Position numbers and translations under genes: made by a program. The notes beneath the pieces were generated by a model. It was not told where the DNA came from, ran no database searches, and saw only the letters and a program-made list of their open reading frames with translations. 64,000 bases of DNA from Candidatus Saccharicenans subterraneus (GTDB taxonomy: Bacteria; Acidobacteriota; Aminicenantia; Aminicenantales; Saccharicenantaceae): positions 64,620 through 128,619 of the forward strand of contig QUAH01000009.1 of assembly GCA_003426165.1 (NCBI GenBank). Direction: 5' to 3'. Shown piece by piece: positions 1,532-43,798 of the stretch. Positions within the stretch are counted from its first letter, which is position 1. Each line of letters begins with the position of its first letter.

Positions 1532-2104
1532 TTACTGAATCCTGGTAACAGAAATGATGATGATGGGTTCAACCGGGACGTCGCGGTACATGCCCTTGGT
1601 GGTGGTGGCCACCTCGGCAATGGCGTCGACCACTTCCATCCCCTGAATGACCTTGCCGAAAACGGCGTAACCGAATTTCTTGGGGTCGTTGGGCACGTGG
1701 TCCAGGAAGGGGTTGTCCACCAGGTTTATAAAGAACTGGCAGGTGGCGCTGTCGATCTCAGGGGTCCTGGCCATGGCAATTGTCCCGCGCAGGTTCTTTA
1801 ACCCGTTGTTGGCCTCGTTCTTGATCGGGGGCCGTTTTTCTTCTTTGGTCTGCAGGTCCGGGGTCAAACCGCCACCCTGGATCATGAAGCCTTTAATCAC
1901 CCGGTGAAAAATGGTACCGTCGTAGAACTTGTCTCCGACATAGGTCAGGAAATTCTTGACGGTAATCGGGGCCTTATCAGCAAACAGCTCGATCACGATG
2001 TCTCCCTTGCTGGTCTTCATCAGGATACGGGGATTGGCCGCCAGCAGGGAGCTGATGGAGAAGACCAGGAGCAGGCTGAAAAAGATGAAAATAACTTTGT
2101 TCAT
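1532..2104 (-). CDS. ppiA: periplasmic cyclophilin-type peptidyl-prolyl cis-trans isomerase
   Basis: Signal peptide; FYDGTIFHRVIKGFMIQGGG, GTIAMART, QFFINLVDN and YAVFGKV motifs; GGAGG RBS. Confidence 0.95.
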   Translation of the reverse strand: MNKVIFIFFSLLLVFSISSLLAANPRILMKTSKGDIVIELFADKAPITVKNFLTYVGDKFYDGTIFHRVIKGFMIQGGGLTPDLQTKEEKRPPIKNEANNGLKNLRGTIAMARTPEIDSATCQFFINLVDNPFLDHVPNDPKKFGYAVFGKVIQGMEVVDAIAEVATTTKGMYRDVPVEPIIIISVTRIQ

Positions 2105-2264
2105 TTTCTACCTCCGAATAAGAGCTTACGATACCAAATAAAATAAAAATAATCAATTTCGGGATTGACGGCCGAAGTTGACTCCAGAATTTCGGCTGCC
2201 TGGCGATAAGGCTTGACTTTCCCGGCCGGTGGTGGGATAAAATGACTGAAAAGGAGGCTGCGGC

Positions 2265-3095
2265 ATGCCAAAATCGGCAGTCAGGACACTCGGGTCACTG
2301 TTCATTTCCTTCATGGTCTTATCTTCTCCGCTGCTGGCGGATGGTAACCTGGAGTTTAATGTTCATTATTCCTACTGGACGCTGAACGTGGTCCGGGGCC
2401 TGGTGGAGAAAATGGTCAGCGATACCCTGGAGAACGACCTCAAGGACCGCTTCCTGCAGCAGATTCAGGCGGACTATCCAACCCTGGTCGAGAGAGGTTA
2501 CCAGCAGGATGTCAATTTTGATGCGCCGGGCCACAACATCGGGTTTGAACTCCGCTTTTATCCGGGAGGAAGGGGAGGAGCCTTTAGCCTCGGGCTGGCT
2601 GTCGAGCAGACCACCATGAAAATCTCTTTTCCATCGGTTACGGCCAGGCTGGACCTCGTCGACCTCAACCTGAACCAGACGGCTACTTATAACGGCCAGG
2701 CCGGAGGGGAATTCATCATCAAGCCGCTGTCCTTCCACCTGAACATGCGCTGGGAATTCCTGCCTTCCAAAGTTCTGTCTCCTTACCTGACCATCGGGGC
2801 GGGGATTTCCACCTCCAAGAGCTTTTTCGATGCCCGGTACCGGTACGAGTACAGCGGAACGCTCACCCTTCCCGACAGTTCCACCGAACAGTACTCCGAT
2901 TCCGATACCAAGACCCTGAGGCAGATCAAGGACGAGCGCCTGGCCGAGGGAAAGGACTTCCCGCTGAATTTCTTGCCGATCTTTCAATTCAACCTGGGAT
3001 TGAGAGCCAGGCTATCCCGGGCCCTGAACCTGGTGGCCGACGTCGGAATCTTTGACGGCTTTCTTTTCCGTGGAGGGCTGTCCATCAGAATCTGA
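2265..3095 (+). CDS. hypothetical exported protein, probable outer-membrane beta-barrel
   Basis: AAGGAGG RBS, signal peptide, amphipathic beta-strands (PYLTIGAGI, FQFNLGLR, LFRGGLSIRI). Confidence 0.65.
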   Translation: MPKSAVRTLGSLFISFMVLSSPLLADGNLEFNVHYSYWTLNVVRGLVEKMVSDTLENDLKDRFLQQIQADYPTLVERGYQQDVNFDAPGHNIGFELRFYPGGRGGAFSLGLAVEQTTMKISFPSVTARLDLVDLNLNQTATYNGQAGGEFIIKPLSFHLNMRWEFLPSKVLSPYLTIGAGISTSKSFFDARYRYEYSGTLTLPDSSTEQYSDSDTKTLRQIKDERLAEGKDFPLNFLPIFQFNLGLRARLSRALNLVADVGIFDGFLFRGGLSIRI

Positions 3096-3243
3096 TCAGC
3101 GGTCCGAGTTTTCAGGTTGGGAACAGGCCGGACGGCCTTGGCCTCGGCGGATTGAAATAATAGCTAACCAGCGAGAAATTTTTTACTCCAGCCCTCAACC
3201 TGCGGTATTATATCCTCTTTATATTTAAGCAGGGAGAAGTGCG

Positions 3244-30541: not shown

Positions 30542-31288
30542 TCAATCCCACTTGCCCAATCCCGGACCGGCCGGGCTCAAATATTCTACCCCGTGATACC
30601 CTCCGCAGGGATCATTGTAAATGCTTTGGATTATAGCAAACTGACCCCATATAGACGGGCCGATTTCGGTACCGTCTGCCCTGTACCATTTTCCATTGTT
30701 ATATGTCGCATCAGCTGGTACTGCTACTATTTTTTCAAACCAGGTCCACTGACATTCTTTCCCCGTGGTATCTTTGTAGGTCCCTGATTGATGGTTGGTT
30801 AACCAGGCTCCCGATCCAATATATGATGAATATCCATAATGTCTGTCAAGTTGTCCATCTCCATCACAGTCCATATTGCTTAACCAGGCGTCATTCCATT
30901 TCATGTTCAATACGTCTTGACGATAAGGCCAGTACCACTTTTTCTGAACTTCTTGTATTTGTAGATCAGAATATCCTTCTTCTTTGAGCCGAGAGAAATA
31001 GGCTTCATCATCGCCTTCATACGGTGGATAGCCGTCTCTACCTAGATAGGCGTTGCAATAGTAGCCGTTGAAGATATGGGCCTGGTAATTATAACCAAAT
31101 GGATCAAAACCCGGTTTAATCGGGCTGCCTGCCAGATAATGACCGGCAGAGTAAACCAATAATCCATCCTGGATTTTTGTGCATTGATCTGGTCCCTGCG
31201 CTGCAATGGCGGTCTCGTCTGTGCAGAGGCTGACCAGCAAAAAGAGGACACCAAAAACCCAGAGGACAGAAAAAATTACTCTTTTCAT
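30542..31288 (-). CDS. hypothetical secreted protein, Tyr/Trp/Gly-rich, with DxDGDG motif
   Basis: GGGAGGGG RBS, signal peptide, DCDGDGQLD; AT-richer codon usage than its neighbours. Confidence 0.8.
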   Translation of the reverse strand: MKRVIFSVLWVFGVLFLLVSLCTDETAIAAQGPDQCTKIQDGLLVYSAGHYLAGSPIKPGFDPFGYNYQAHIFNGYYCNAYLGRDGYPPYEGDDEAYFSRLKEEGYSDLQIQEVQKKWYWPYRQDVLNMKWNDAWLSNMDCDGDGQLDRHYGYSSYIGSGAWLTNHQSGTYKDTTGKECQWTWFEKIVAVPADATYNNGKWYRADGTEIGPSIWGQFAIIQSIYNDPCGGYHGVEYLSPAGPGLGKWD

Positions 31289-31420: not shown

Positions 31421-31960
31421 TTAGAAGAATACTGAAACTCCTATTAAGAACTGGTGGCTGTTAAAATTTTCCGTGATGTCCATGTCCTTGAGGCGGTTGT
31501 GCAGATACCGGTATTCGAACCTGATGGCTGCCGAATTTCCGACCAGGTACTTGAGCCCGGCTCCGGCGTTGAAGACGAAGCCGTTGAATTCACTATCTGC
31601 TTCCATCAGATAGCCAATCTTGACCCCATTGGTAATTCCGACACCGGCCAGAAGGAAAGGCCGAAAAGAGCCGGCCGTCTTGAAGTTATAAACGCCGTTC
31701 AGGTTGAAGAGATAACCCATGTCGCTATCTTCGACCTTCATCAGGAATAATTCCGGCTCGACCTCTAATCCTTTCCAGAGATAATAACCCAGCCTGAGGG
31801 GGATGGCCAAGATATCGAAGGCCTCGGTGGAACCGGAACTCTTGACGCTGCTGTAGTCAAAACCGATGCCCAGCTCCCATTTTTTACCTTCGGGTTGGGC
31901 CGAGGCGGTCAGGGCCAGGACCATCAGGCCGATAAAAGTCAGGACCAGCAGTTTTTTCAT
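31421..31960 (-). CDS. outer-membrane beta-barrel protein (8-strand OmpA/porin-like)
   Basis: AAGGAG RBS; MKKLL signal peptide ending ASA; PFLLAGVG, FNAGAGLKY, IRFEYRY; C-terminal Phe. Confidence 0.85.
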   Translation of the reverse strand: MKKLLVLTFIGLMVLALTASAQPEGKKWELGIGFDYSSVKSSGSTEAFDILAIPLRLGYYLWKGLEVEPELFLMKVEDSDMGYLFNLNGVYNFKTAGSFRPFLLAGVGITNGVKIGYLMEADSEFNGFVFNAGAGLKYLVGNSAAIRFEYRYLHNRLKDMDITENFNSHQFLIGVSVFF

Positions 31961-32249
31961 GTTTACTCCTTTTTGCATGATTTTTTTAACAAATCTTCCC
32001 CTTCAACTACTGTATCTTAACAAAAGGTGCTGGCCGACTTCAAACGGTTGAGTTGGCATAGGTGGGCTTGCGTACATTCAGACAATGTGGAGATGGGGTC
32101 AGTACCTGATAATTCCACGGGGAAAGAGCCGGACTTGACTGTGGCCAGGCCGCGGGATTATCTTCTCCTCGGGCCTCATTGATGTGCTGATGGATCTTAA
32201 GGTAAGAGGGAAATTTATTAAATCCAGCCTGAGGAGTTTTCGGACTGAA

Positions 32250-32957
32250 ATGGCAAAGAGCAGCATGCCCGCCATTCTGATAATGCTGATTATCGCCATG
32301 GGTGACCCGCTCCCCGCAACCGGCTCTAGGGGACAGATGGCTTATGATGAAGGCCTGGCAGCTCTTACCTCCGGTTCGGCTGGAGGGCCGCAATTAAGCC
32401 AGGTTATACCTGATTTCGGGCCGGATGGGCTTAAAGGCCTGACCGAAGAGCAGAAGAAAAAAATCTTATCGGGTGAGGTGGTGCTGGTTTCTTCCCATGA
32501 GGGGGCGCCGGAGGGCAAAAGCATAATCTCTGCCGTCCTGGTTTTTGAGGTCCCCGTGGAAAGGGCCTGGGCGATTCTCTCCGCTCCCGAGCTTCAGGCC
32601 GAGTACCTTGAGGAAATTGAAGAGCTGAAGACCGTGGAGCGGGGGCCTGATTTTAACCGGATGTTCTTTCTGGTGAAGGTGATGGGTCAGAGGGTCCGGT
32701 ATACCGTCATCCATCACTTCTGGCCCGACCAGTTCTACCTGTGGTGGGAACTCGACCGCAACGAGCCGCATGACTTAAAAGAGTTGTATGGCTTCTGGAA
32801 GCTGTTCAGGTACGATGAGCGCAGGACGGTGGCCCGTTATGGAACTTTCGTCAGGCCCGCCTTCCCGGTTCCGGCTTTTCTCCGTAACTGGCTTTCCAGG
32901 AGCAATGTCCGCCACTCCCTGGCCACGGTAAAGAAATACGTGGAAGGAAGAAAATAA
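32250..32957 (+). CDS. exported SRPBCC/START-like (polyketide cyclase fold) protein
   Basis: VPVERAWAIL...YLEEIEE pattern and LYGFWKL; N-terminal hydrophobic segment. Start uncertain (32184 or 32250). Confidence 0.65.
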   Translation: MAKSSMPAILIMLIIAMGDPLPATGSRGQMAYDEGLAALTSGSAGGPQLSQVIPDFGPDGLKGLTEEQKKKILSGEVVLVSSHEGAPEGKSIISAVLVFEVPVERAWAILSAPELQAEYLEEIEELKTVERGPDFNRMFFLVKVMGQRVRYTVIHHFWPDQFYLWWELDRNEPHDLKELYGFWKLFRYDERRTVARYGTFVRPAFPVPAFLRNWLSRSNVRHSLATVKKYVEGRK

Positions 32958-33076: not shown

Positions 33077-33577
33077 ATGAAGAAGACATTTCTGGTATTG
33101 ACGGGGATTCTCCTGATAATTCAATTTGGCTGTTCACCGAAAAGTTCATCAAACTTTGAACTCTATCTCACCGACGCCCCCCTCGAGGGCCTGGAAAATT
33201 TTTATGTCACCATCAGCCAGATATACTTAAGGCTGGAGGATGGCACCTGGACTGATAATCTCCTGAGTGAACCCAAGACTTATGACCTGCTTCTGCTAAG
33301 AAACAGAGAGGAGAAGGTCTGCCAGGCCGACCTGCCGCCCGGAACCTATACCGGTATAAAGCTGGTTCTCACCAATGCCGAGATTGTGGTTAATGGACGC
33401 AGTTTCCAGATAAGTATCAATCCGCCGCTGACCATAACAGTTCCCGTTAACTTCACCGTTCTCGAGGATGGGACGGTAAAGGTGACACTGGACTTTGACG
33501 CCGCCCAGTCCGCGGTTCAGGAAGGCAGCGGTTACCGGCTGGTGCCCAGTATCGTGGTTAAGAGGATTAGCTATTGA
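33077..33577 (+). CDS. DUF4382-like lipoprotein
   Basis: GGGAGG RBS, lipobox QFGC, LYLTDAP, YDLLLL, LPPGTY, TLDFDAAQS, YRLVP. Confidence 0.8.
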   Translation: MKKTFLVLTGILLIIQFGCSPKSSSNFELYLTDAPLEGLENFYVTISQIYLRLEDGTWTDNLLSEPKTYDLLLLRNREEKVCQADLPPGTYTGIKLVLTNAEIVVNGRSFQISINPPLTITVPVNFTVLEDGTVKVTLDFDAAQSAVQEGSGYRLVPSIVVKRISY

Positions 33578-33624: not shown

Positions 33625-34938
33625 TTGCGGGCAATTTTCTGGTTTAAGAGAGACTTAAGGCTCAGGGACAATCGCGGCCTTTATGAGCTATCTTCCCTGC
33701 CAGCCGAAATAATTCCAATCTTTATCCTTGATGAACGACTGCTGTCCAGCCTGGATGGTCCGGCTTCCAGAACCGGCTTTCTGCTGGCCGCCCTGGAGCG
33801 GCTGGAGGCCGAGCTCCGGGCCAGAGGCAGCCGGCTTTATTGCTTTTATGGACAACCCGAAGAAGTTCTGGCCAGGCTCATCGCCCAGCTAAAACCCGAG
33901 GCCCTTTACACCAACCGCAGCTATTCCTGGTCGGGGGAGAAAGTTCAGAAAAAGGTGGAAGCCCTGTGCCGCAAGACGGGAGTCGAGTTCAGGGACTTCA
34001 ATGATTCCCTGCTGGTTTCACCCGAAAAGATTGAAGCCCGAAAAGTCTTCAGCCCGTTTTTCAGGCTGTGGAGCTCGGCCCTGCGCTCTGAGGACTTATC
34101 GGTAAAACCGGAGCCGTCCCCTCTTAAAACGCCGGTGCTTCGATTGCCCACGCTGGCCGAGACCGCCAGCCTGATCACCCACGAGCCCAACGGCTACTGG
34201 CGGCCAGATTATGCCGGGCGGAGACTCAGGCAGTATGATTTCCGGGGCTACGATGAAGGACGGAACAGGCTGGACCAAGATGGCACCAGCCGCCTGTCGG
34301 TGGCCATCAGGTTTGGCCTGGTGTCGATAAGAGAGGTGCTGGCCGCGGCGCGGAAGCGACTTCAAGTGGACAGCCAGTTTGTGAAGGAACTGGCCTGGCG
34401 GGAGTTCTGGTACCACATCCGTCATCACTTTCCCTGGACCGAGAAGCTGGAATTCCAGGAGAAGCGCCGGGGCTTGAAATGGCTCAACCGCGACGAAGAC
34501 ATCAGGGCGGTGGAGGAAGCCCGCACCGGTTATCCCGTAATTGATGCGGCCATCAACCAGCTCAAACAGGAAGGCTGGATGCATAACCGGGCCAGGTTGA
34601 TAGTGGCTTCGTTCCTGACCAAGGACCTGCTTATAGACTGGAGGATAGGGGAGAAGCTATTCAAGAAGTATCTCCTCGATTATGACGAGGTGGTCAATAC
34701 CGGCAACTGGCAGTGGTCGGCCTCGGTCGGAGCCGATCCGCGCCCCCTGCGGATGTTCAACCCGCAGCTTCAGTCCGAAAAATATGACCCGGAATGCCGC
34801 TACATAAAAAAATATGTTCCTGAACTCAAAAGGGTTGATTGCCGGGCCATACTGGCCCTGGACCTGCCTGACTATCATCCGCCAATTGTGGACCACCGGT
34901 CTGCGGCCATCAGGGTTAAACAGGTTTATCTAAGATGA
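33625..34938 (+). CDS. phrB: deoxyribodipyrimidine photolyase (photolyase/cryptochrome family)
   Basis: WFKRDLRLRDN, GTSRLS, ELAWREF, TGYPVIDAA, GWMHNRAR, FLTKDLLIDWR, NTGNWQW, RMFNP; TTG start. Confidence 0.93.
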   Translation: MRAIFWFKRDLRLRDNRGLYELSSLPAEIIPIFILDERLLSSLDGPASRTGFLLAALERLEAELRARGSRLYCFYGQPEEVLARLIAQLKPEALYTNRSYSWSGEKVQKKVEALCRKTGVEFRDFNDSLLVSPEKIEARKVFSPFFRLWSSALRSEDLSVKPEPSPLKTPVLRLPTLAETASLITHEPNGYWRPDYAGRRLRQYDFRGYDEGRNRLDQDGTSRLSVAIRFGLVSIREVLAAARKRLQVDSQFVKELAWREFWYHIRHHFPWTEKLEFQEKRRGLKWLNRDEDIRAVEEARTGYPVIDAAINQLKQEGWMHNRARLIVASFLTKDLLIDWRIGEKLFKKYLLDYDEVVNTGNWQWSASVGADPRPLRMFNPQLQSEKYDPECRYIKKYVPELKRVDCRAILALDLPDYHPPIVDHRSAAIRVKQVYLR

Positions 34939-35190: not shown

Positions 35191-38100
35191 CTACAGATCT
35201 AGCAGCTTGATGGTCTCGGCATAGACCAGCCTTTTGTACTTCTTGTGGGTTACCGCAGCCACGGTCCGGGCCGCCTTGTCCACCTCGTCCGTGTCAAACA
35301 ACTCGTATTCCCTGACGGCGATCCTGTAATCCTGTATCTTCAGACCGGAAGGAAGCTTGAGCGTTCCCTGCCAGATAAAAGAACCTACCTCGCTCGCCCC
35401 GGCCCTTTGCGGTTTAAGGATGACTGCCGCATCTTTGACCGGCTCCCAGCCCAGCTCGTCAGGCAGGTTGGGTTTCTTGTTTTCCAGGACTGCTTCCACC
35501 TCTCCCGGCCCGCTTCCGGCATAACCCTGGATGTAAGAAACCCCGGAGAGAGTTATGTTGATATCGCTCAGCTTGGAAGGATTGAAGGAGACTGAGAGAT
35601 TCCTTTCCGGAAGTATCTGGGCGAAATTGGCTACCACCACCTGGGAAAGATGGGCTCCCGGCACTGAATTGGGCTGGAACCTGGCCAGGGCCAGCCTGAT
35701 GAACGGGAAGTAAGCCTGGCCGGAGTCGAGCTCCAGGTCGCAGAACCACAGCTGCCTTTCTTCATCGTACTCAACCTGGTGACCGACGGCGATGAATTTC
35801 TTCTCGTCCGGCATTTCCAGCAGGGGCAATTCTCCCATAACCTCCACGGCTGATGGGAAAGCATCGGGTAGCGGATATTCGGGCGGAGCTACCGGTCCCG
35901 ACCGCCAGATGGGGTCGGCTCCCCACATGGTAACGTAAGGCTTGTATTTTTCCGCCACCGGTGGGACGCTGACCTGAAGACCAGCGGCCACAGTTTTTCT
36001 CTGGAGCTGGGGTTGGATCTTCTGAGAAGCCAGGGTAGGTCCGGTAGAGCTTGCAGGAGCGGCCATTGGTTTCTTCGGAGTAATGGTGAGGCCCGGGGGC
36101 AGGATTACTGCCAGCAGCTCGCCTTCGCCCGTTGAATACCACGGTCTTTCTAGGTAGATGCGGAGGCCGCTTCGCCTGACACTGGTAATTTGTGAGCCTT
36201 TTTTGCTCCTTTCCCATTTAAAAGAAGGCACCACATAGACAACCTTGGGCATGGCCGGGGGTGCGGTGTTCAGCACCTTGACTTCTACCGGCTCGCTCGT
36301 CCTGGTATATCCGGTCTCTTCGGGCAGCTCGTTTGAGGGGAATTGCTCCATGTACCTGGTGGTGGTGACCAGCCGGTAATTTACCCTTCTGAACTTGGTA
36401 TCGCCGAATTCATGGCGGTAAACTGGAGTTTGCGGGGCTTTGACCATGGCCACGGTGGCCGCCCTGGTTTGAAGTTGAGCCGCTCCAGGTTGAGTTACTT
36501 CCTTTCCAGCCTCTGGCCTTGGAGTCAGAGTCAGCGAGGTCATGACCGGTTCTATTTTGAATTCCAGCACGTGAGCCTTACCATCCAGAACTCGTGGCCC
36601 GGGCTCATTAAGGTAATCCACCGGTTCTTTCCAGTCGGCCAGGAGCTCGGCCTTGGAAGTGCTCTGGCCGTGCAGCGCAAACTCTCCAAAGAGAATTGCC
36701 GAGGTCTGGCCCAGGCTTCTCTGGGCTTCGAGTGACTTGTTGACGGGTTTGCCCACCGGTTGCAGCGTGGCGTGCATCAGGGTAATTTCCCGGAACGGGG
36801 TCATCAACCAGTTGCGTCCCTGGAGCGAGAGGGTCCTGACTTTAGTCAGGTCAATCCGCGGTGGCTGCAGGGTTTTCAGGACCTGGACCTGGCCTTCGGG
36901 CAGACCTCTTGGCGGTTGCATTACCTTTTGGGGAATTATCCTGTCTGGCTTTTCCAGCCAGCGGTAGAGTCCCTGGATGGGCAGGAATCTTTCCGGAAAA
37001 TAACAGCTCAGTCGCAGGGTTACCGATTCGCCTTTTTTCAAATAAACAGTCAGAAGGCGGGCCGAGTTATCCCAGCGGGCCGGCTGGCTGCCTTCCTGGA
37101 GCCTGATCCTGAACGGTCGGAAATCCGGCCAGTCGCCTGAAAATTCAATCAGCATCGGGTCGGGTGCTCCGTAGGGCAATCCACGAATACAGGCCCCCCG
37201 GGCCCAGGGATCCGGAAAGTAGGGTAGCTCAACCTGCTCGCCGGGCTCCAGTTCCTTGAATTGTCCGCCGTCTCTCTGGCAGATCAGGGAATAGACTTCA
37301 GGCTTCAAGCCGGCTGGGCCATCGAACATCCCGTGAAACTCTGAATCCAGCTGGGAGATTTTTGGCGGGGCCACATGGCGGTCAGAAACCTGGTCGGTGG
37401 GAACGGTATCCTTCTCGATGGATTCGTTGAAGCTCTTGATGACCAGGTGGTCAACATTCTCCCCGCTTTTCGGCACTTCCCTGGGAATTATTTGCGGGGA
37501 GGGCACCGGGTCGAACCGGGAGAAGATGAAGGGTTGCCTGGAAGGCGACGGAATGGCGCAGCTGTCGTCCGGATTTTCCAGGGGCTGGCTGTTTCCGGCC
37601 AGGTCCACGGCCCGGGCTCTCAGCCGGTAGCCGACTCCATACCGCAGTCGCGGCAGCGACCCTGGTTTTGGCCTGAATCTCGTTTCCAGCAGGAAATCTG
37701 TCATGGCCTTGTTTTCGATGGCTTGAGGGGTGTCGTTAGGGTCAATCGTTTTTCCGGGGCGGGGAGCCACCAGGCTCCAGCCGTCCCAGTGGAAAAGGGA
37801 TTCATGGGCGAAGATGTCGTCGGATGATTCATCGGCCGATTGAGTTACTGCCGGAGAAATAAAACCCTCGTCTTCCAGGGTTAACTCGCGGCCTGTCCTG
37901 AGGAACCTGTAGGTCCCGATACGCTGGCAGAGGGACCGCCATTTCCCCGACTTCTCGTCCCAGACGTCAACCCGGTAGCCCTGGATCAAATCCTCGGCAT
38001 ACAGGGTTATTTCTTTTCGGCGTACCAGGTCATTATTAAGTTCCACGGCTCGAACCAGGACTTCGGCAATGTTCTTGGCCTGCTCATTTCTCACCACACC

Positions 38101-39183
38101 CAGGCCGCTCGAGCGCAGGGCCGGGAGCTCGGCTTTTTCCTTGGTCTCGGCTGTATCGGCCAGCTCGGCTGTTTTCAGGGCTACGGCATCGACGTCCAGT
38201 TGGACCAGGTCATACTGCTCTTCGTCGGCCAGGTTCAGGAACCCTCTGACCACCTCCGGCGTTCTCTTGCTGGAAGCGGCCTCGAAAATGGCCCGGGCCG
38301 GGTCAAAGTTGTAGGCGGTGCGGGGCGTTTCATCGGTGCGGCCCTGGGGCACGATTTTAATCCAGCCGCTGGCCGGGAAGTCGGGTGGAATATCCATCTC
38401 GAAATCGAGGGCCAGTCCCAGCAGTCTCATCAGGGCCGGGTAGTTGGTGATGAAGGCCAGTGCCTGGTGGAAGTCTATCTCCGGCTTGGTGATCGGCACC
38501 TTCTTAACAATCGGTTGTTTGGTCTTGGGGTCAATGGTTATCCTGTTCTTGGGCTTGTAGAAATCGCGCAACAAAAAGAAATCCTTTGGTGGCTGGGGCA
38601 GGGGAGTAACCTGGACGGCTCTGTATTTCTGGCTTTCGGCCTCGCGTCTGACCGACTGGGCCATTACCTGCTGGGTGGTCCTTAGCTGGACGGTCCGGGA
38701 CAGGCGGGCGTCGGTTATGGGCTTAAGGCGGATCTGGGCCAGTCCATCGGTGTGGAAAACCTTTTCCATCGGCGGCGGTTCTTCGGGCGAATCTGCAGCC
38801 ACGTTTAGATAGGTGGAGGCGACAAAGGTCATTACGTTCTTTACCGGGTAGGAGACCACCAGGTTCTTGCTGAGGTCGGCCATCTTGAAGTTGAAGACCG
38901 GGGCTTCTGGCTTGAAGATGGCCTGCCAGAGTTCCGGGTCAGGCTCAGGAGAGATTCTCTTGATCTCAACGGGCGCCGGTGTCTTTCTTTTATCGTAGGT
39001 TACTCCGAAATTTATGGCCCTGACAGTTTCCGGCCAGTTGAGGATTTCCGGGAACAGGTTCAGGCTGGGAGTTTTACCACCGGAACCATCTTCCAGGCGT
39101 ATGGAGACTGCGGCCGAAAATCGAAGCTTACCGTCCTTGATTCCGTTGGGACACAGGGTCCACATCACGGTTGATTTAGCCAT
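35191..39183 (-). CDS. large hypothetical protein (1330 aa), no signal peptide
   Basis: Uninterrupted ORF with host-like codon usage; AAGGAAGG RBS in the 14-nt gap after the upstream gene; Pro/Trp-rich, Ig/Fn3-like stretches (YRLRARAVDLAGNS). Confidence 0.9.
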   Translation of the reverse strand: MAKSTVMWTLCPNGIKDGKLRFSAAVSIRLEDGSGGKTPSLNLFPEILNWPETVRAINFGVTYDKRKTPAPVEIKRISPEPDPELWQAIFKPEAPVFNFKMADLSKNLVVSYPVKNVMTFVASTYLNVAADSPEEPPPMEKVFHTDGLAQIRLKPITDARLSRTVQLRTTQQVMAQSVRREAESQKYRAVQVTPLPQPPKDFFLLRDFYKPKNRITIDPKTKQPIVKKVPITKPEIDFHQALAFITNYPALMRLLGLALDFEMDIPPDFPASGWIKIVPQGRTDETPRTAYNFDPARAIFEAASSKRTPEVVRGFLNLADEEQYDLVQLDVDAVALKTAELADTAETKEKAELPALRSSGLGVVRNEQAKNIAEVLVRAVELNNDLVRRKEITLYAEDLIQGYRVDVWDEKSGKWRSLCQRIGTYRFLRTGRELTLEDEGFISPAVTQSADESSDDIFAHESLFHWDGWSLVAPRPGKTIDPNDTPQAIENKAMTDFLLETRFRPKPGSLPRLRYGVGYRLRARAVDLAGNSQPLENPDDSCAIPSPSRQPFIFSRFDPVPSPQIIPREVPKSGENVDHLVIKSFNESIEKDTVPTDQVSDRHVAPPKISQLDSEFHGMFDGPAGLKPEVYSLICQRDGGQFKELEPGEQVELPYFPDPWARGACIRGLPYGAPDPMLIEFSGDWPDFRPFRIRLQEGSQPARWDNSARLLTVYLKKGESVTLRLSCYFPERFLPIQGLYRWLEKPDRIIPQKVMQPPRGLPEGQVQVLKTLQPPRIDLTKVRTLSLQGRNWLMTPFREITLMHATLQPVGKPVNKSLEAQRSLGQTSAILFGEFALHGQSTSKAELLADWKEPVDYLNEPGPRVLDGKAHVLEFKIEPVMTSLTLTPRPEAGKEVTQPGAAQLQTRAATVAMVKAPQTPVYRHEFGDTKFRRVNYRLVTTTRYMEQFPSNELPEETGYTRTSEPVEVKVLNTAPPAMPKVVYVVPSFKWERSKKGSQITSVRRSGLRIYLERPWYSTGEGELLAVILPPGLTITPKKPMAAPASSTGPTLASQKIQPQLQRKTVAAGLQVSVPPVAEKYKPYVTMWGADPIWRSGPVAPPEYPLPDAFPSAVEVMGELPLLEMPDEKKFIAVGHQVEYDEERQLWFCDLELDSGQAYFPFIRLALARFQPNSVPGAHLSQVVVANFAQILPERNLSVSFNPSKLSDINITLSGVSYIQGYAGSGPGEVEAVLENKKPNLPDELGWEPVKDAAVILKPQRAGASEVGSFIWQGTLKLPSGLKIQDYRIAVREYELFDTDEVDKAARTVAAVTHKKYKRLVYAETIKLLDL

Positions 39184-39197
39184 GGTGGTCCTTCCTT

Positions 39198-42100
39198 TCA
39201 GGCAAAGGCTTCACAGTAAGCCAGCCAGTCTTTTTCTTCCATCAGGTCGCAGAACAGCGGGGCCGGCGAATGCCCGAATTCTCGCTCAACCTTGAGCGTT
39301 ACCTTGATGCTGAAGAAGACGATTTTGATCTTGACAGTCAGCGAGGCCTGGCCCCAGACCCGGTTGCTGGCTTCTTCGTAGGTCAGGGCCAGGTAGAATT
39401 CGGCCGAGATGCTGATGAGGCCCAGGACGTCCAGCTCGCCGGTGCAGCGGACGTAACCGGTCAGGGTCAGGGCATCATCTTCATACTTGAAGTAGATGCC
39501 GGCCATCAGGGTTACCCCGCCGCTGGCCACCCCGATGTTCATGGCGAAGCTGCCGCCAAACTCCAGGGCGCCTTCGATCAGCTTTATGCCGTGGGGCTGG
39601 AGAACGATGGCAAAGAAACCGCCGCCGCCGAACATGGCCACGGTGACCAGGAATGGATTGTTTTTCTCGTTAAAGGCAAAACGCAGGGCCACCGGGTCGC
39701 CGGTAAAGGGCAGGTGGATTTCGCCGGTGAATTTCAAGTTCTGCAGGGTAAAGACTCCGAAGGCCACGTCGGGTATGGACAGGGCATAGCCCAGCCTGGC
39801 CCCCGACGCATCCACCTTGACTATGGGTTTCCCGCCGAAGCCGCCGTCGGCATCGCTGAAACCGCCGGGTAGCGGAATCTTATCCAGCAGTTCCTTGATG
39901 AATTTGAGCGGGCCCTGGAAATCGATGGAGGCGATTTTCGGGTCGACGTCGGTTTTCTTGCCCTTTTCGGCGGTGAAGGTGAACTTTGAGAACTTGACCA
40001 GGATGAAGGTGGTTATGCCTTTAATCAGGTCCAGGGTGAAGTCGGTCAGTTCCCCTTTGACCTTGTAGGTGGATTCCTTCCCGTTGAAATAATTTATCGC
40101 CTCCACGTTCAGGGTTAGCGTGGACTTGGTGCCGTCGCGGTTGGCGATGAAGATCAGGACGTCATGCACGGAAGGTGTCCACTTGAGCATCGTCTTGATG
40201 CCGGCCGGGGTCTTGCCGTCGCTTTCATAGACCTGCTCGTTCTTGATGGTCAGGGCCTTACCGGTGTTGGCCGGGCTGGTGAAATCGTTGATCTGGTCGA
40301 TGACGTCCTGGAGCAGGATTCCACCCAGGATTTTGGCCTGGTCGCTGAAGAACTTTTTCGGGTCGAACTTGCCGGCGACAATATCATTAAGGGCACCGGC
40401 AGCCTGGGCCACAGGATCCGGAACGGACTCAGCCAGTCCCGCTCCAACCGGTCCCAGTATCCTGGACAGGCCGACTATCGAGAAGCTCGGAGTGGCAATA
40501 CCACCTGATTTTTCGGCTTTCCCGCCGGCCGCGAAATCCAGGCGGGGCGGATTGAGAACCTGGAAGATAAGCTCGCCCTTGTTGCCTGATGGGCTCAGAC
40601 CGTTCTTGATGTAAGCCTCGGCATATTTCACCCGGGTGCTGTCAAAGCCAACCAGGTTTTTGAGGGCCGGGATGGCGATATCCGCTTCTTCCAGCGCGGG
40701 AAAACACATCGGCTGGTCCTGCATCTCAAAGGCCGCAGGCGAAGAATTTGGTCTGGCTTCAACCACCTGCCAGGTCAGCGAGTCTGTTTCGAAAGTCGTG
40801 TCACCTTTTTTCTTTTCCGGAGCGAATGAAATGCTCTGCCCCATCAGGTCCGGTTTTCTCCTGTCAACAGGGGTGTTGGACTTGGAATTGTAAGCGCCGA
40901 TCACCTGGTTGAGCTTGGACTGGTTGAAGGCGTAGAAGTTTTCCACAAAGACCATGGGCATACGGAACTCGACTTCGTGGCCTTCCTGGTCGGTGGCAAT
41001 CACGTGGAATCTGAAATCCTGCCCTCCGACTTTCGGCCAGAAGGCCTGCTGGCCGGAGTCCGGCAGAACCTGGGTGTTTTCGGGAGGGTCGAGCGGCGGA
41101 GTTTTCCTGGTGGTAATTCTGACCAGCCTGAAAGGCACTTCCCGGCCGTCGTATTGCTGGAACGGGGCAGGGAAGGAGCGGTCCGGGTCGCGGATGACGA
41201 TGTATTTTTTCTGGAAGAGGTAGGCGATGTTCTGCCCGTCTTTTCCCTTATAAAATTTTCTTTCGGTCTCTTTGACCAGGGCTGCCCGGTGCCCGAACGG
41301 GAGCAGATAACCCTTGTAAACGACCTTGACAAAGTGGTCGCGGCCCATGGTGGCCAGGTGCTGCCAGGTTACCACCGAGAGTGGCGACATCGGCGACCAG
41401 TTGCCGATGGAATCCAGCCAGGCGCCCAGCGGGCTGAGCATCAGACGGTTAACTTTCACCGGCCTGGGTTCGTAGGCGGATTTATCAGGATTCCTGAGGG
41501 TAAAATTGCTGCTCAGGTGGACGATCTGGTGCCGGTCGTTGGGGTCGAGCGAAAGACGTGGCCGGGCCTTGTGTTCCGGGTCAGGGCCAACCAGGTTATC
41601 GAGGTCCACGTCTGGGGACCACACGGCCCGGACTGCCAGGTAGGGGCTGTCTGATTCGCTTACCGTGCCGTCGGGGTTAAGGGCGGCCAGGCGGGTATGC
41701 CAGAGCTCCGTCCAGCCGGCGGTAGACGTGGCCCCGGCCGTGTGCAGCCAGACATTGTAGGCATTGGGAGAGAGAATCAGCCGGTAGGGCATTTCAATGG
41801 CCGTCTGGAATTTTTCCGGCTGGGCAGGCTTTAGCGTAGCCCTGAGAGTGGCGCTGACCTGGGCCTGGGACAGTTTGCTCTGCTTCAGGTAAAGGGTCTG
41901 GGTTGAAGGGCCGGTCTGGGTCAGCAGGGAGCGGGTTGAAGCAGCCGGGGTTCCGGTTTTAGGCTGAACCGTTTTCGGGGCAGTCTGTCCCGGAACATAG
42001 GGAGGGAGGGCCACCGGAACCAGGCTCGGCTGGTAAAGGTGCCAGGCCAGGAGTGATTCCAGGGTCAGCGGGATTTCTTTGATCTCGTCCGGGATCAAGA

Positions 42101-42536
42101 AGGCCAGCCGGCTCGGCCCTGAAATCCTGGAAAAAACCGGCGGCGGTTTTGGGGTCTCTGATTCGGCCGGGGTGCTGGCCTCGTAAAAAGCTTCTTCGGC
42201 GATGCTCTGTGGGGGGAAGTGGACGATGAGATAGGCCGGCTGCGAGGCGTTCTCTCTGACCAGGTGCGGCCGGGGCAGGTTCACCAGTTTGAGGTTAAGG
42301 AACTCAAAATCCAGGTAGAGCAGGTCGTCCGGTCTGAAGGCTTTAATCAATAGTCCGGTCTGGGGCAAAGCTATCTGTCTCTGCGGGATTACCTTTTTCT
42401 GAATCTGCTGTAGCTGGCCGATTACCGGTGTGGCCCCGAGGATGCCGGCGTAGGAGAGGAATTTTCTCCGGGAGATTCGTCCGGGTTTCGTATCCATTTG
42501 CCCTTCTTTCTTTTTCCTTGACTCAGGGTCGGTCAT
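39198..42536 (-). CDS. large hypothetical protein (1112 aa) with twin-arginine motif and beta-rich C-terminus
   Basis: AAGGAAAGGAG RBS; SRRKFL at aa 22-27; C-terminal Gly-rich amphipathic strands; ends WLAYCEAFA. Confidence 0.9.
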   Translation of the reverse strand: MTDPESRKKKEGQMDTKPGRISRRKFLSYAGILGATPVIGQLQQIQKKVIPQRQIALPQTGLLIKAFRPDDLLYLDFEFLNLKLVNLPRPHLVRENASQPAYLIVHFPPQSIAEEAFYEASTPAESETPKPPPVFSRISGPSRLAFLIPDEIKEIPLTLESLLAWHLYQPSLVPVALPPYVPGQTAPKTVQPKTGTPAASTRSLLTQTGPSTQTLYLKQSKLSQAQVSATLRATLKPAQPEKFQTAIEMPYRLILSPNAYNVWLHTAGATSTAGWTELWHTRLAALNPDGTVSESDSPYLAVRAVWSPDVDLDNLVGPDPEHKARPRLSLDPNDRHQIVHLSSNFTLRNPDKSAYEPRPVKVNRLMLSPLGAWLDSIGNWSPMSPLSVVTWQHLATMGRDHFVKVVYKGYLLPFGHRAALVKETERKFYKGKDGQNIAYLFQKKYIVIRDPDRSFPAPFQQYDGREVPFRLVRITTRKTPPLDPPENTQVLPDSGQQAFWPKVGGQDFRFHVIATDQEGHEVEFRMPMVFVENFYAFNQSKLNQVIGAYNSKSNTPVDRRKPDLMGQSISFAPEKKKGDTTFETDSLTWQVVEARPNSSPAAFEMQDQPMCFPALEEADIAIPALKNLVGFDSTRVKYAEAYIKNGLSPSGNKGELIFQVLNPPRLDFAAGGKAEKSGGIATPSFSIVGLSRILGPVGAGLAESVPDPVAQAAGALNDIVAGKFDPKKFFSDQAKILGGILLQDVIDQINDFTSPANTGKALTIKNEQVYESDGKTPAGIKTMLKWTPSVHDVLIFIANRDGTKSTLTLNVEAINYFNGKESTYKVKGELTDFTLDLIKGITTFILVKFSKFTFTAEKGKKTDVDPKIASIDFQGPLKFIKELLDKIPLPGGFSDADGGFGGKPIVKVDASGARLGYALSIPDVAFGVFTLQNLKFTGEIHLPFTGDPVALRFAFNEKNNPFLVTVAMFGGGGFFAIVLQPHGIKLIEGALEFGGSFAMNIGVASGGVTLMAGIYFKYEDDALTLTGYVRCTGELDVLGLISISAEFYLALTYEEASNRVWGQASLTVKIKIVFFSIKVTLKVEREFGHSPAPLFCDLMEEKDWLAYCEAFA

Positions 42537-42649: not shown

Positions 42650-43048
42650 GTTTTCTTTATACCTCTATGGGAGGTCAAGTCAAGTTAAAAATTCTTTCCG
42701 GTTAAGATATGGCATCCAGTCTAATCGGTCTGTTTGGAAGCGCTGTGGTGGTAGTCCGGCTATAGGGATTGGAGTTGAAGAAGCTGGGAGATTTATCAGG
42801 TTGGTACTTGAAAAATCTAATGACCATCTATCTTGATGATGACCCAGAAAGTTATCCTTTAGGCTGTGAGCACTCATCCCCCAAGAAAATTTTAGACACT
42901 TAGATTATCTGGACTACCGGTTACTTTCTGGGCGCAGGATGGAATGTCGTTCGGATTTAACATGCCTGTCCTTTTGGGCTATCATTATTCTTAAAGAGGA
43001 AACTTAGGTTTTGATAAAAGTGGCTTCCGGTAAGGCTGGGAGTTTAAG

Positions 43049-43798
43049 TTGAAATTAAAATCTTTACTGTCCAGGTGTTCGGGATTTCACCATAATTTCA
43101 GGCGCATCGAAGAATGCTCCACTCTGCTGAGGTGGCTGGACCCAAAGCCGGGTGAAAAAATACTCGATGTGGGCTGCGGGGACGGCTTTTATACAGAGAA
43201 GATTGCCAGAAGGGGAGCGGAGACCACTGGAATAGATATCCGCAAAAAAGCCTTGGCCAGGGCCCGCAACCGATGCTCCAGCCTGAAACTTCGTTTTATA
43301 GAAATGAACGCCGAGGAACTTGACTTCCCGGAAAACTATTTTGACAAGGTTATAAGCTTCTGCGTTATCGAGCATTTACAGGATGATGAAAAGACCCTGC
43401 GGCAGATAGCCAGGCTCTTGAAACCCGGGGGCAGGTTGTTTCTCTCGGCCGATAGCCTGTCCAATCCCGGTCTGCGAGCAGAGGAGAAGGAAAGGCACCG
43501 CAGGCGTTACCACGTGAATCAATTTTATAACCTGGAAGTGGTTTCCAGTAAGTTGCAGCAAGCCGGCCTGAAGCTGGAGCGCTCCCGGTTCGTTCTTTCA
43601 AGTCGGCTGGCCCTGGCCCTGGCCCGTTTTTCCTGGAAACTCGATGACCTGCCGCCGATTCTGCTTCCACTGCGCTTCATCGGGTATCTGTTACTTGGAA
43701 CGGTGGGTTTGCTCGCCCTGCGCCTGTTCGAACCCCCGCCGGAGAAAAGGAAACACGGACTGACGCTGCTGGTAGAAGCCTCCAAACCACAACGGTGA
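43049..43798 (+). CDS. class I SAM-dependent methyltransferase
   Basis: ILDVGCGDG, GIDI, FDKVIS...VIEH, LLKPGG; TTG start. Confidence 0.9.
   Translation: MKLKSLLSRCSGFHHNFRRIEECSTLLRWLDPKPGEKILDVGCGDGFYTEKIARRGAETTGIDIRKKALARARNRCSSLKLRFIEMNAEELDFPENYFDKVISFCVIEHLQDDEKTLRQIARLLKPGGRLFLSADSLSNPGLRAEEKERHRRRYHVNQFYNLEVVSSKLQQAGLKLERSRFVLSSRLALALARFSWKLDDLPPILLPLRFIGYLLLGTVGLLALRLFEPPPEKRKHGLTLLVEASKPQR

Follow-up and report, generated by a model that had tools for sequence, protein, structure and literature searches.

A widespread pair of giant bacterial proteins, one bearing a twin-arginine signal, as a candidate two-subunit cell-envelope complex

What might two adjacent giant genes that resemble no described family do for the cell, and do they belong to one system? 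The question is raised by genes A and B, which lie in a 64,000-nucleotide stretch of the Candidatus Saccharicenans subterraneus genome (the window, meaning the whole stretch of DNA analyzed). Tentatively, the best overall explanation is an envelope complex that is exported by the twin-arginine translocation (Tat) system and possesses a hydrophobic groove. The first-pass annotation had described two intact, co-oriented open reading frames (ORFs) 14 nt apart, each with a ribosome-binding site (RBS), and the ORF coordinates and sequence bear this out:

Gene A, 39198..42536, minus strand: 1112 aa, 122.5 kDa; Tat-signal-bearing beta-rich subunit.
Gene B, 35191..39183, minus strand: 1330 aa, 149.1 kDa; no signal peptide; predicted alpha/beta mixture in the N-terminal part, with beta-sandwich-like regions after it.
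A–B intergenic spacer, 39184..39197, minus strand: 14 nt, holding the RBS of B.

Both binding sites are purine-rich (AAGGAG 5′ of A and GGAAGGA 5′ of B), and 100 of 102 A–B gaps measured in relatives were positive, mostly below 50 nt. Since each protein is conserved over its full length in more than 100 listed relatives, A and B are not chance ORFs, and the motif blocks quoted in the annotation sit inside conserved stretches of the two family alignments.

Comparison of genomic contexts revealed that the two genes are near-obligate neighbors. The Genome Taxonomy Database (GTDB) held 477 stretches matching A, and in the best 80 of these, on which our genome-locus counts rest, B was located directly downstream of A in 74. 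Four of the remaining six end at a contig edge, two (L064 and L074) have other DNA downstream of A, and for all five of these six that were tested B was found elsewhere in the genome. In the metagenomes, A was upstream of B in 42 of 58 loci, the other 16 having no upstream DNA. In 301 genomes forming an even sample of one phylum (its centre annotated Actinomycetes; G442 is unpublished), A was present in nine and B in eight, with all eight pairs adjacent and the ninth A at a contig edge. Trees of A and B built from 64 non-redundant pairs were largely congruent, sharing 26 of 34 and 29 of 38 of their well-supported splits. Together with records from several phyla, the 74 of 80 genome loci and 42 of 42 metagenome loci with upstream DNA support the annotation's view of an obligate pair of hypothetical genes in unrelated phyla; independent occurrence of the two homologs was not the pattern found. 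These findings suggest that A and B probably form a stable complex.

Sequence searches identified at least 1696 A-like and at least 319 B-like proteins, of which the nearest carry hypothetical-protein annotations from Candidatus Saccharicenans or Aminicenantes, and a profile of A recovered 6506 clusters (50% identity, including fragments), a large family without a described fold or function. The records span Acidobacteriota, Armatimonadota, Chloroflexota, Bacillota, Bacteroidota, Actinomycetota, Pseudomonadota, and one archaeal bin. Along its own lineage, the pair was present in 3 of 151 genomes of the phylum, 13 of 151 of the class, 11 of 25 of the family, and 7 of 8 of the genus. Plasmids yielded 22 matches to A and 19 to B, with seven Bacillus plasmids among the carriers; 50,697 phage records contained no match to B, and one IMG/VR contig holds an A–B pair.

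Neither protein matched Pfam, PHROGs, or PADLOC, and the sole NCBIfam match was the weak Tat-signal family TIGR01409 on A. Neither sequence nor family-profile searches of the PDB yielded a credible match to A or B (hevamine, with E > 1, was dismissed as chance), the ESM Atlas returned only unnamed clusters save one low-scoring peptidoglycan-binding cluster, and domain scans of 33 A and 33 B relatives identified no core domain. Short, sub-cut-off tail-tube matches in two B relatives were likewise dismissed as chance; phage tail and contractile injection genes were absent from the recurring neighbor clusters, and no credible tube, sheath, or baseplate homology was found. We detected neither homology of A to B nor internal repeats, and the main texts of the open-access literature that we searched did not describe the pair. 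With no full-length confident match to a characterized family for either protein, A–B is a real, widespread module that lies, by sequence, outside every described family; its standing as a new class is provisional, and a distant structural likeness to a known class is possible. The annotation's statement that neither protein shows a recognizable motif holds as far as families go; it had overlooked a twin-arginine signal at the start of A:

Twin-arginine signal core of A, 42417..42476, minus strand: residues 21–40, SRRKFL and a weakly hydrophobic stretch.

The motif reads S22-R-R-K-F-L27, TIGR01409 aligns to residues 21–40 as a sub-cut-off match (E 0.082), and a cleavage site after the signal is not evident. 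In a motif search, 126 of 251 relatives of A (three of the 254, which have no start residue, were left out) and none of 120 relatives of B carried the twin-arginine motif. Signal-bearing forms of A include those of Streptomyces sp. NBC_01334 and Sinorhizobium meliloti LMB1, the latter a giant form with its own tatA. In the 64 non-redundant pairs, which extend across phyla, the motif was present in 39 and absent from 20, the other five being open-ended. The genome itself encodes TatC and two TatA-like proteins, away from A–B. A signal on A only, in a host possessing the Tat translocase, is the arrangement of the Escherichia coli Tat hitchhiker complexes PaoABC and HybOC, in which one subunit has a twin-arginine signal and its co-encoded partner has none (excerpts of PMC4273604). 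Unlike these hitchhikers, A–B displays no cofactor motif, many of its relatives lack the signal, and some of its operons possess a tatA gene of their own. Tat export of this copy is fairly likely. The Tat signal and the linked tatA support the annotation's view of the pair as exported in this copy and in roughly half or more of its relatives; that view is not supported for the family as a whole, in which many A proteins are signal-less even in genomes with TatC.

Of the 144 loci for which flanking DNA was available, a partly redundant set, nine have a tatA immediately beside A–B and in the same orientation. Five of the nine are Symbiobacteriaceae-like, L053 and L099 form one clade, and the other two are L138 and a Sinorhizobium meliloti plasmid, where an annotated tatA lies 49 bp after B; together they represent at least four lineages. 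Examples are:

Extra tatA genes beside A–B: L187:16424-16591; L028:16923-17120; L053:7784-8170; L099:4731-4922; L138:9742-10206.

All three linked copies checked with Pfam scored above cut-off, and a profile seeded from eight linked tatA genes detected no tatA elsewhere in the ~2.6 Mb of A–B loci. The size of the presumed cargo is unusual. A and B together amount to ~272 kDa, compared with the 135 kDa of PaoABC, which is listed among the largest Tat cargoes in excerpts of PMC4273604 that give no known upper limit; a passage in a review puts the cargo handled at up to 150 kDa (PMC6708511). Five giant alphaproteobacterial A forms, of 246–363 kDa for A alone, all keep the twin-arginine motif, and the two of their B partners that were weighed came to 192 and 209 kDa. 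How large a Tat cargo can be and what TatA stoichiometry contributes are standing questions in the field, and natural Tat-signal proteins of 120–360 kDa with an obligate partner of 150–210 kDa and sometimes an operon TatA make the question of cargo size directly testable in cultured strains. If true, export of folded A–B would at least double the accepted limit.

Coevolution analysis of A (392 sequences, effective number 212), a statistical inference from sequence, resolved two large beta-rich parts:

A residues 58–660, 40557..42365, minus strand: interlocked beta-rich module running into an antiparallel meander (coevolution, conservation).
A residues 765–1090, 39267..40244, minus strand: ~20 sequential antiparallel strands with one hydrophobic face and hydrophobic hairpin tips (coevolution, composition).

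Within the first part, the interlocked module spans residues 58–450, a P/Q/T linker lies at ~180–240, and a sequential hairpin meander covers ~355–660. In the second, the coevolving strands run over 767–1085, and an amphipathic helix (872–895, with its contacts at 876–890) packs on the sheet, which the C-terminal helix contacts too. Strands 900–1090 strictly alternate hydrophobic with small or polar residues and have hydrophobic tips on several turns; the beta-type hydrophobic moment peaks here (1.28 vs. 0.56–1.0 elsewhere). The sole strongly hydrophobic 19-mer in the two proteins (A 961–979, mean Kyte–Doolittle 1.97) is placed by coevolution within a beta-hairpin.

A long antiparallel meander with one hydrophobic face is shared with the AsmA-like, repeating beta-groove bridges TamB, YhdP, and YdbH (PMC10345924 and others), as is an optional outer-membrane barrel partner. 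Unlike these bridges, A–B has a Tat-type signal, an obligate second giant subunit, and monoderm hosts, and its groove is a predicted one. AsmA-like bridge proteins have an N-terminal membrane helix. On this likeness, a groove or conduit function is a possible, tentative assignment; if true, A–B would add a bridge-like protein family that works in monoderms too.

The last ~70 residues of A also bear a weak likeness to the end of the DUF6603 region (PF20248), with hhalign giving 59.7% and E 9e-5 over 67 columns against a background of at most 4.2% in 62 other comparisons and 0.6% for a reversed control. Both families occur in patchy operons of very large uncharacterized genes, and the downstream genes of the DUF6603 operons are unrelated to B. 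The 502-position DUF6603 profile gave no HMMER match over cut-off in the A family scans or in the own genome, and the open-access literature contained no paper on the family. DUF6603 operons (L145-L149, L194-L201) hold several giant uncharacterized genes, those of L145 encoding 826, 1154, 976, 1578, and 581 aa, and G300 has four DUF6603 matches.

The conservation pattern of A and B bears on a different proposal, a metal- or cofactor-containing heterodimeric enzyme whose meanders would serve as scaffold and substrate channel. Such an enzyme would use the Tat route because folding and loading must happen in the cytoplasm, and Tat cargo is often cofactor-loaded. Near-invariant His, Glu, Asp, and Arg residues do cluster in A 248–426 (H265, E277, H280, H393, R399, and D400 are near-invariant) and are spread through B (H239, H603, E615, and H804); however, they may equally represent structural salt bridges, neither protein contains a catalytic motif or family, no maturation or redox genes recur nearby, and inserts of hundreds of residues are tolerated. 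We consider an enzyme quite unlikely. Long A forms gain a ~400-residue N-terminal domain or amphipathic helical inserts, which in several cases are apolipoprotein-like, below cut-off. Among the A relatives with added domains, P0325, P0265, and P0272 display an Rv2525c-like glycoside hydrolase (C-terminal), a transthyretin-like domain, and a cohesin-like domain, the last of which sits behind a Sec-like start. The most divergent pair of the tree lies on a Bacillus pseudomycoides plasmid (L186:7975-11583), where A is extended at its N-terminus by Trp-rich repeats without a Pfam match, which we take to resemble a lectin propeller.

For B, the coevolution signal (254 sequences, effective number 124) was weaker than for A. 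It delineated an intertwined beta region at residues 810–1195, followed by a compact terminal domain:

B residues 1195–1330, 35194..35601, minus strand: predicted compact terminal beta-sandwich-like domain.

Some B relatives append Ig-like modules after this domain, and 3 of the 33 scanned carry extracellular-type additions (LamG, Big_3_5, and ASH Ig). Large beta-rich subunits with Ig and lectin additions would also suit a structural surface polymer, a fiber or layer of A–B heterodimers comparable to the Tat-dependent archaeal fimbriae, for which excerpts of PMC11821415 provide a precedent. No anchor or chaperone gene recurs among the neighbor clusters, and the signal-less forms are not accounted for by a polymer, which makes it very unlikely.

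In the envelope complex that we favor, A and B would assemble as a two-subunit complex of ~270 kDa, which would cross the Tat translocase in folded form on the signal of A, with the signal-less B as hitchhiker; the extra operon TatA of some lineages might assist the passage of so large a cargo. Once beyond the cytoplasmic membrane, the A meander could curl into a groove that binds lipid or other hydrophobic cargo, or grips the membrane, in the manner of AsmA and TamB, and B would be a scaffold on which Ig-like or lectin modules can be mounted. The products of two accessory genes may work with the complex in some diderms, D as an optional outer-membrane barrel and C as a periplasmic TANFOR-like protein. 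The most specific version of this proposal, an undescribed envelope machine combining folded Tat co-export at ~270 to >500 kDa, its own TatA in several lineages, a hydrophobic-groove conduit able to work on one or the other side of the cytoplasmic membrane, and a dedicated outer-membrane barrel in some diderms, is doubtful as a whole.

Several findings weigh against this interpretation. Inter-chain coevolution (112 pairs, 58 non-redundant) stood at the level of shuffled data and was dominated by artefact columns, with three of seven controls valid, and the fusion search revealed no true A–B fusion (its sole long match, P0375, was rejected as a frameshift read-through). No AsmA, DUF490, DUF3971, or Chorein-N match was detected with Pfam or NCBIfam in A or the 33 relatives scanned, and monoderms with no outer membrane to bridge (Bacillus, Cohnella, Streptomyces, and Chloroflexota) carry the pair. 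The own genome lacks both C and D, and eight further A–B loci contained no tatA. Because Tat cargo is put at up to 150 kDa (a passage of PMC6708511), the signal of A might instead serve as a membrane anchor. The main gap concerns the signal-less A proteins found in 20 of the 64 pairs, a few of which represent frameshift splits or near-miss motifs; one signal-less pair is that of Cupriavidus metallidurans CH34 (NC_007974.2, ~1316.7–1325.6 kb). Signal-less forms are interleaved with signal-bearing ones along the tree and start right at a conserved domain, which argues against universal export. All five tested genomes with a signal-less A possess TatC (an archaeal bin holding A does not), and in 19 signal-less loci no neighboring gene convincingly supplies a signal; signal-less forms may therefore act in the cytoplasm. 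No export model accounts for them.

The same forms, present in TatC-positive genomes, would suit a membrane-protection or anti-phage module that worked at one or the other face of the cytoplasmic membrane, the gain or loss of the Tat signal selecting the face. Some plasmid copies lie near genes for WYL, N-6 DNA methylase, dpdE, and toxin–antitoxin systems, in keeping with such a role, but the PADLOC defense models matched none of ten proteins and no defense gene recurs among the neighbor clusters of the 80 genome loci, so that we rate protection as rather improbable. Giant plasmid forms adjoin WYL, N-6 DNA methylase, and dpdE at L189:3137-7592 and L188:24740-26667.

Accessory genes flank a minority of the pairs. 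Seven of the 80 genome loci and one of the 58 from metagenomes have gene D beside A–B; its product begins in Sec-type fashion, shows alternating strands, and ends in Trp. Neither D nor its barrel relatives belong to a Pfam or NCBIfam family, and the D product appears barrel-like, a candidate outer-membrane barrel. It is usually accompanied by gene C, which encodes a conserved N-terminal domain and a variable part, e.g. RCC1 repeats (we excluded L074 and the RCC1-only members of neighbor cluster 4, L050 and L069, from gene C). Of 201 genomes from the phylum to which G596 belongs, 96 have a relative of D. Among seven such loci taken from an independent sample, two of the three closest adjoin A or A–B, and three distant ones precede giant proteins with a C-like N-terminus, one of which gave a sub-cut-off TANFOR match. 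A barrel-like gene precedes proteins of 1800–3100+ aa with a TANFOR-like N-terminus at L205:1-10516, L206:1-11173, and L208:1-6987.

TANFOR proteins are described as polymorphic toxins of Bacteroidota in excerpts of PMC7073777, and the relatedness of C and D to genes in or beside TANFOR-like giants is one reason to consider a two-component antagonism factor, in which A–B, exported or released by lysis, would attack target membranes through the hydrophobic hairpin edge of A, B being the part that binds. The patchy distribution in the own phylum, the plasmid copies, including those of Bacillus, and the variable binding-type additions would suit such a factor. However, unlike TANFOR toxins, A–B has no polymorphic tip and is not confined to Bacteroidota: the C-termini of A and B are conserved, no small immunity-like gene of at least 80 aa recurs downstream or among the neighbors, and family scans of A and B revealed no toxin domain. 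The TANFOR domain TIGR02542 was not matched in A, B, or the relatives scanned, hhalign detected no homology of A or B to the TANFOR-like giants (at most 6.5%), and the pair is kept in nearly every own-genus genome, amid housekeeping genes. An antagonism factor is unlikely on these grounds, and the evidence leans toward an envelope complex and away from a polymorphic toxin; among the toxin, conduit, and surface assembly named in the annotation, it leans the same way without decisively separating the three.

At the locus itself, the flanking genes are those given in the annotation, a convergent photolyase (33625-34938) and a divergent methyltransferase (43049-43798), both confirmed with Pfam. 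Upstream of A, we noted by eye one weak candidate element:

Possible sigma-70-type promoter, 42656..42683, minus strand: TTGACT-16-TATAAA, by eye.

It is considered weak because a promoter scan did not report it, nor anything else on the coding strand. Assembled contigs of one metatranscriptome run covered 11 of 30 bins, every one within A–B. As the run was found using an A–B gene, stems from a related strain, and is represented by contigs only, this provides a weak hint of expression. Downstream of B in several Saccharicenans loci, the photolyase is accompanied by a DUF4382 protein (33077-33577) and a START/polyketide-cyclase-like protein (32184-32957), a matter of local synteny only. Farther along the window, a 248-aa ORF (30542-31288) that starts with a signal-like sequence and matches no Pfam family lies in an AT-richer stretch and adjoins an outer-membrane beta-barrel gene (31421-31978).

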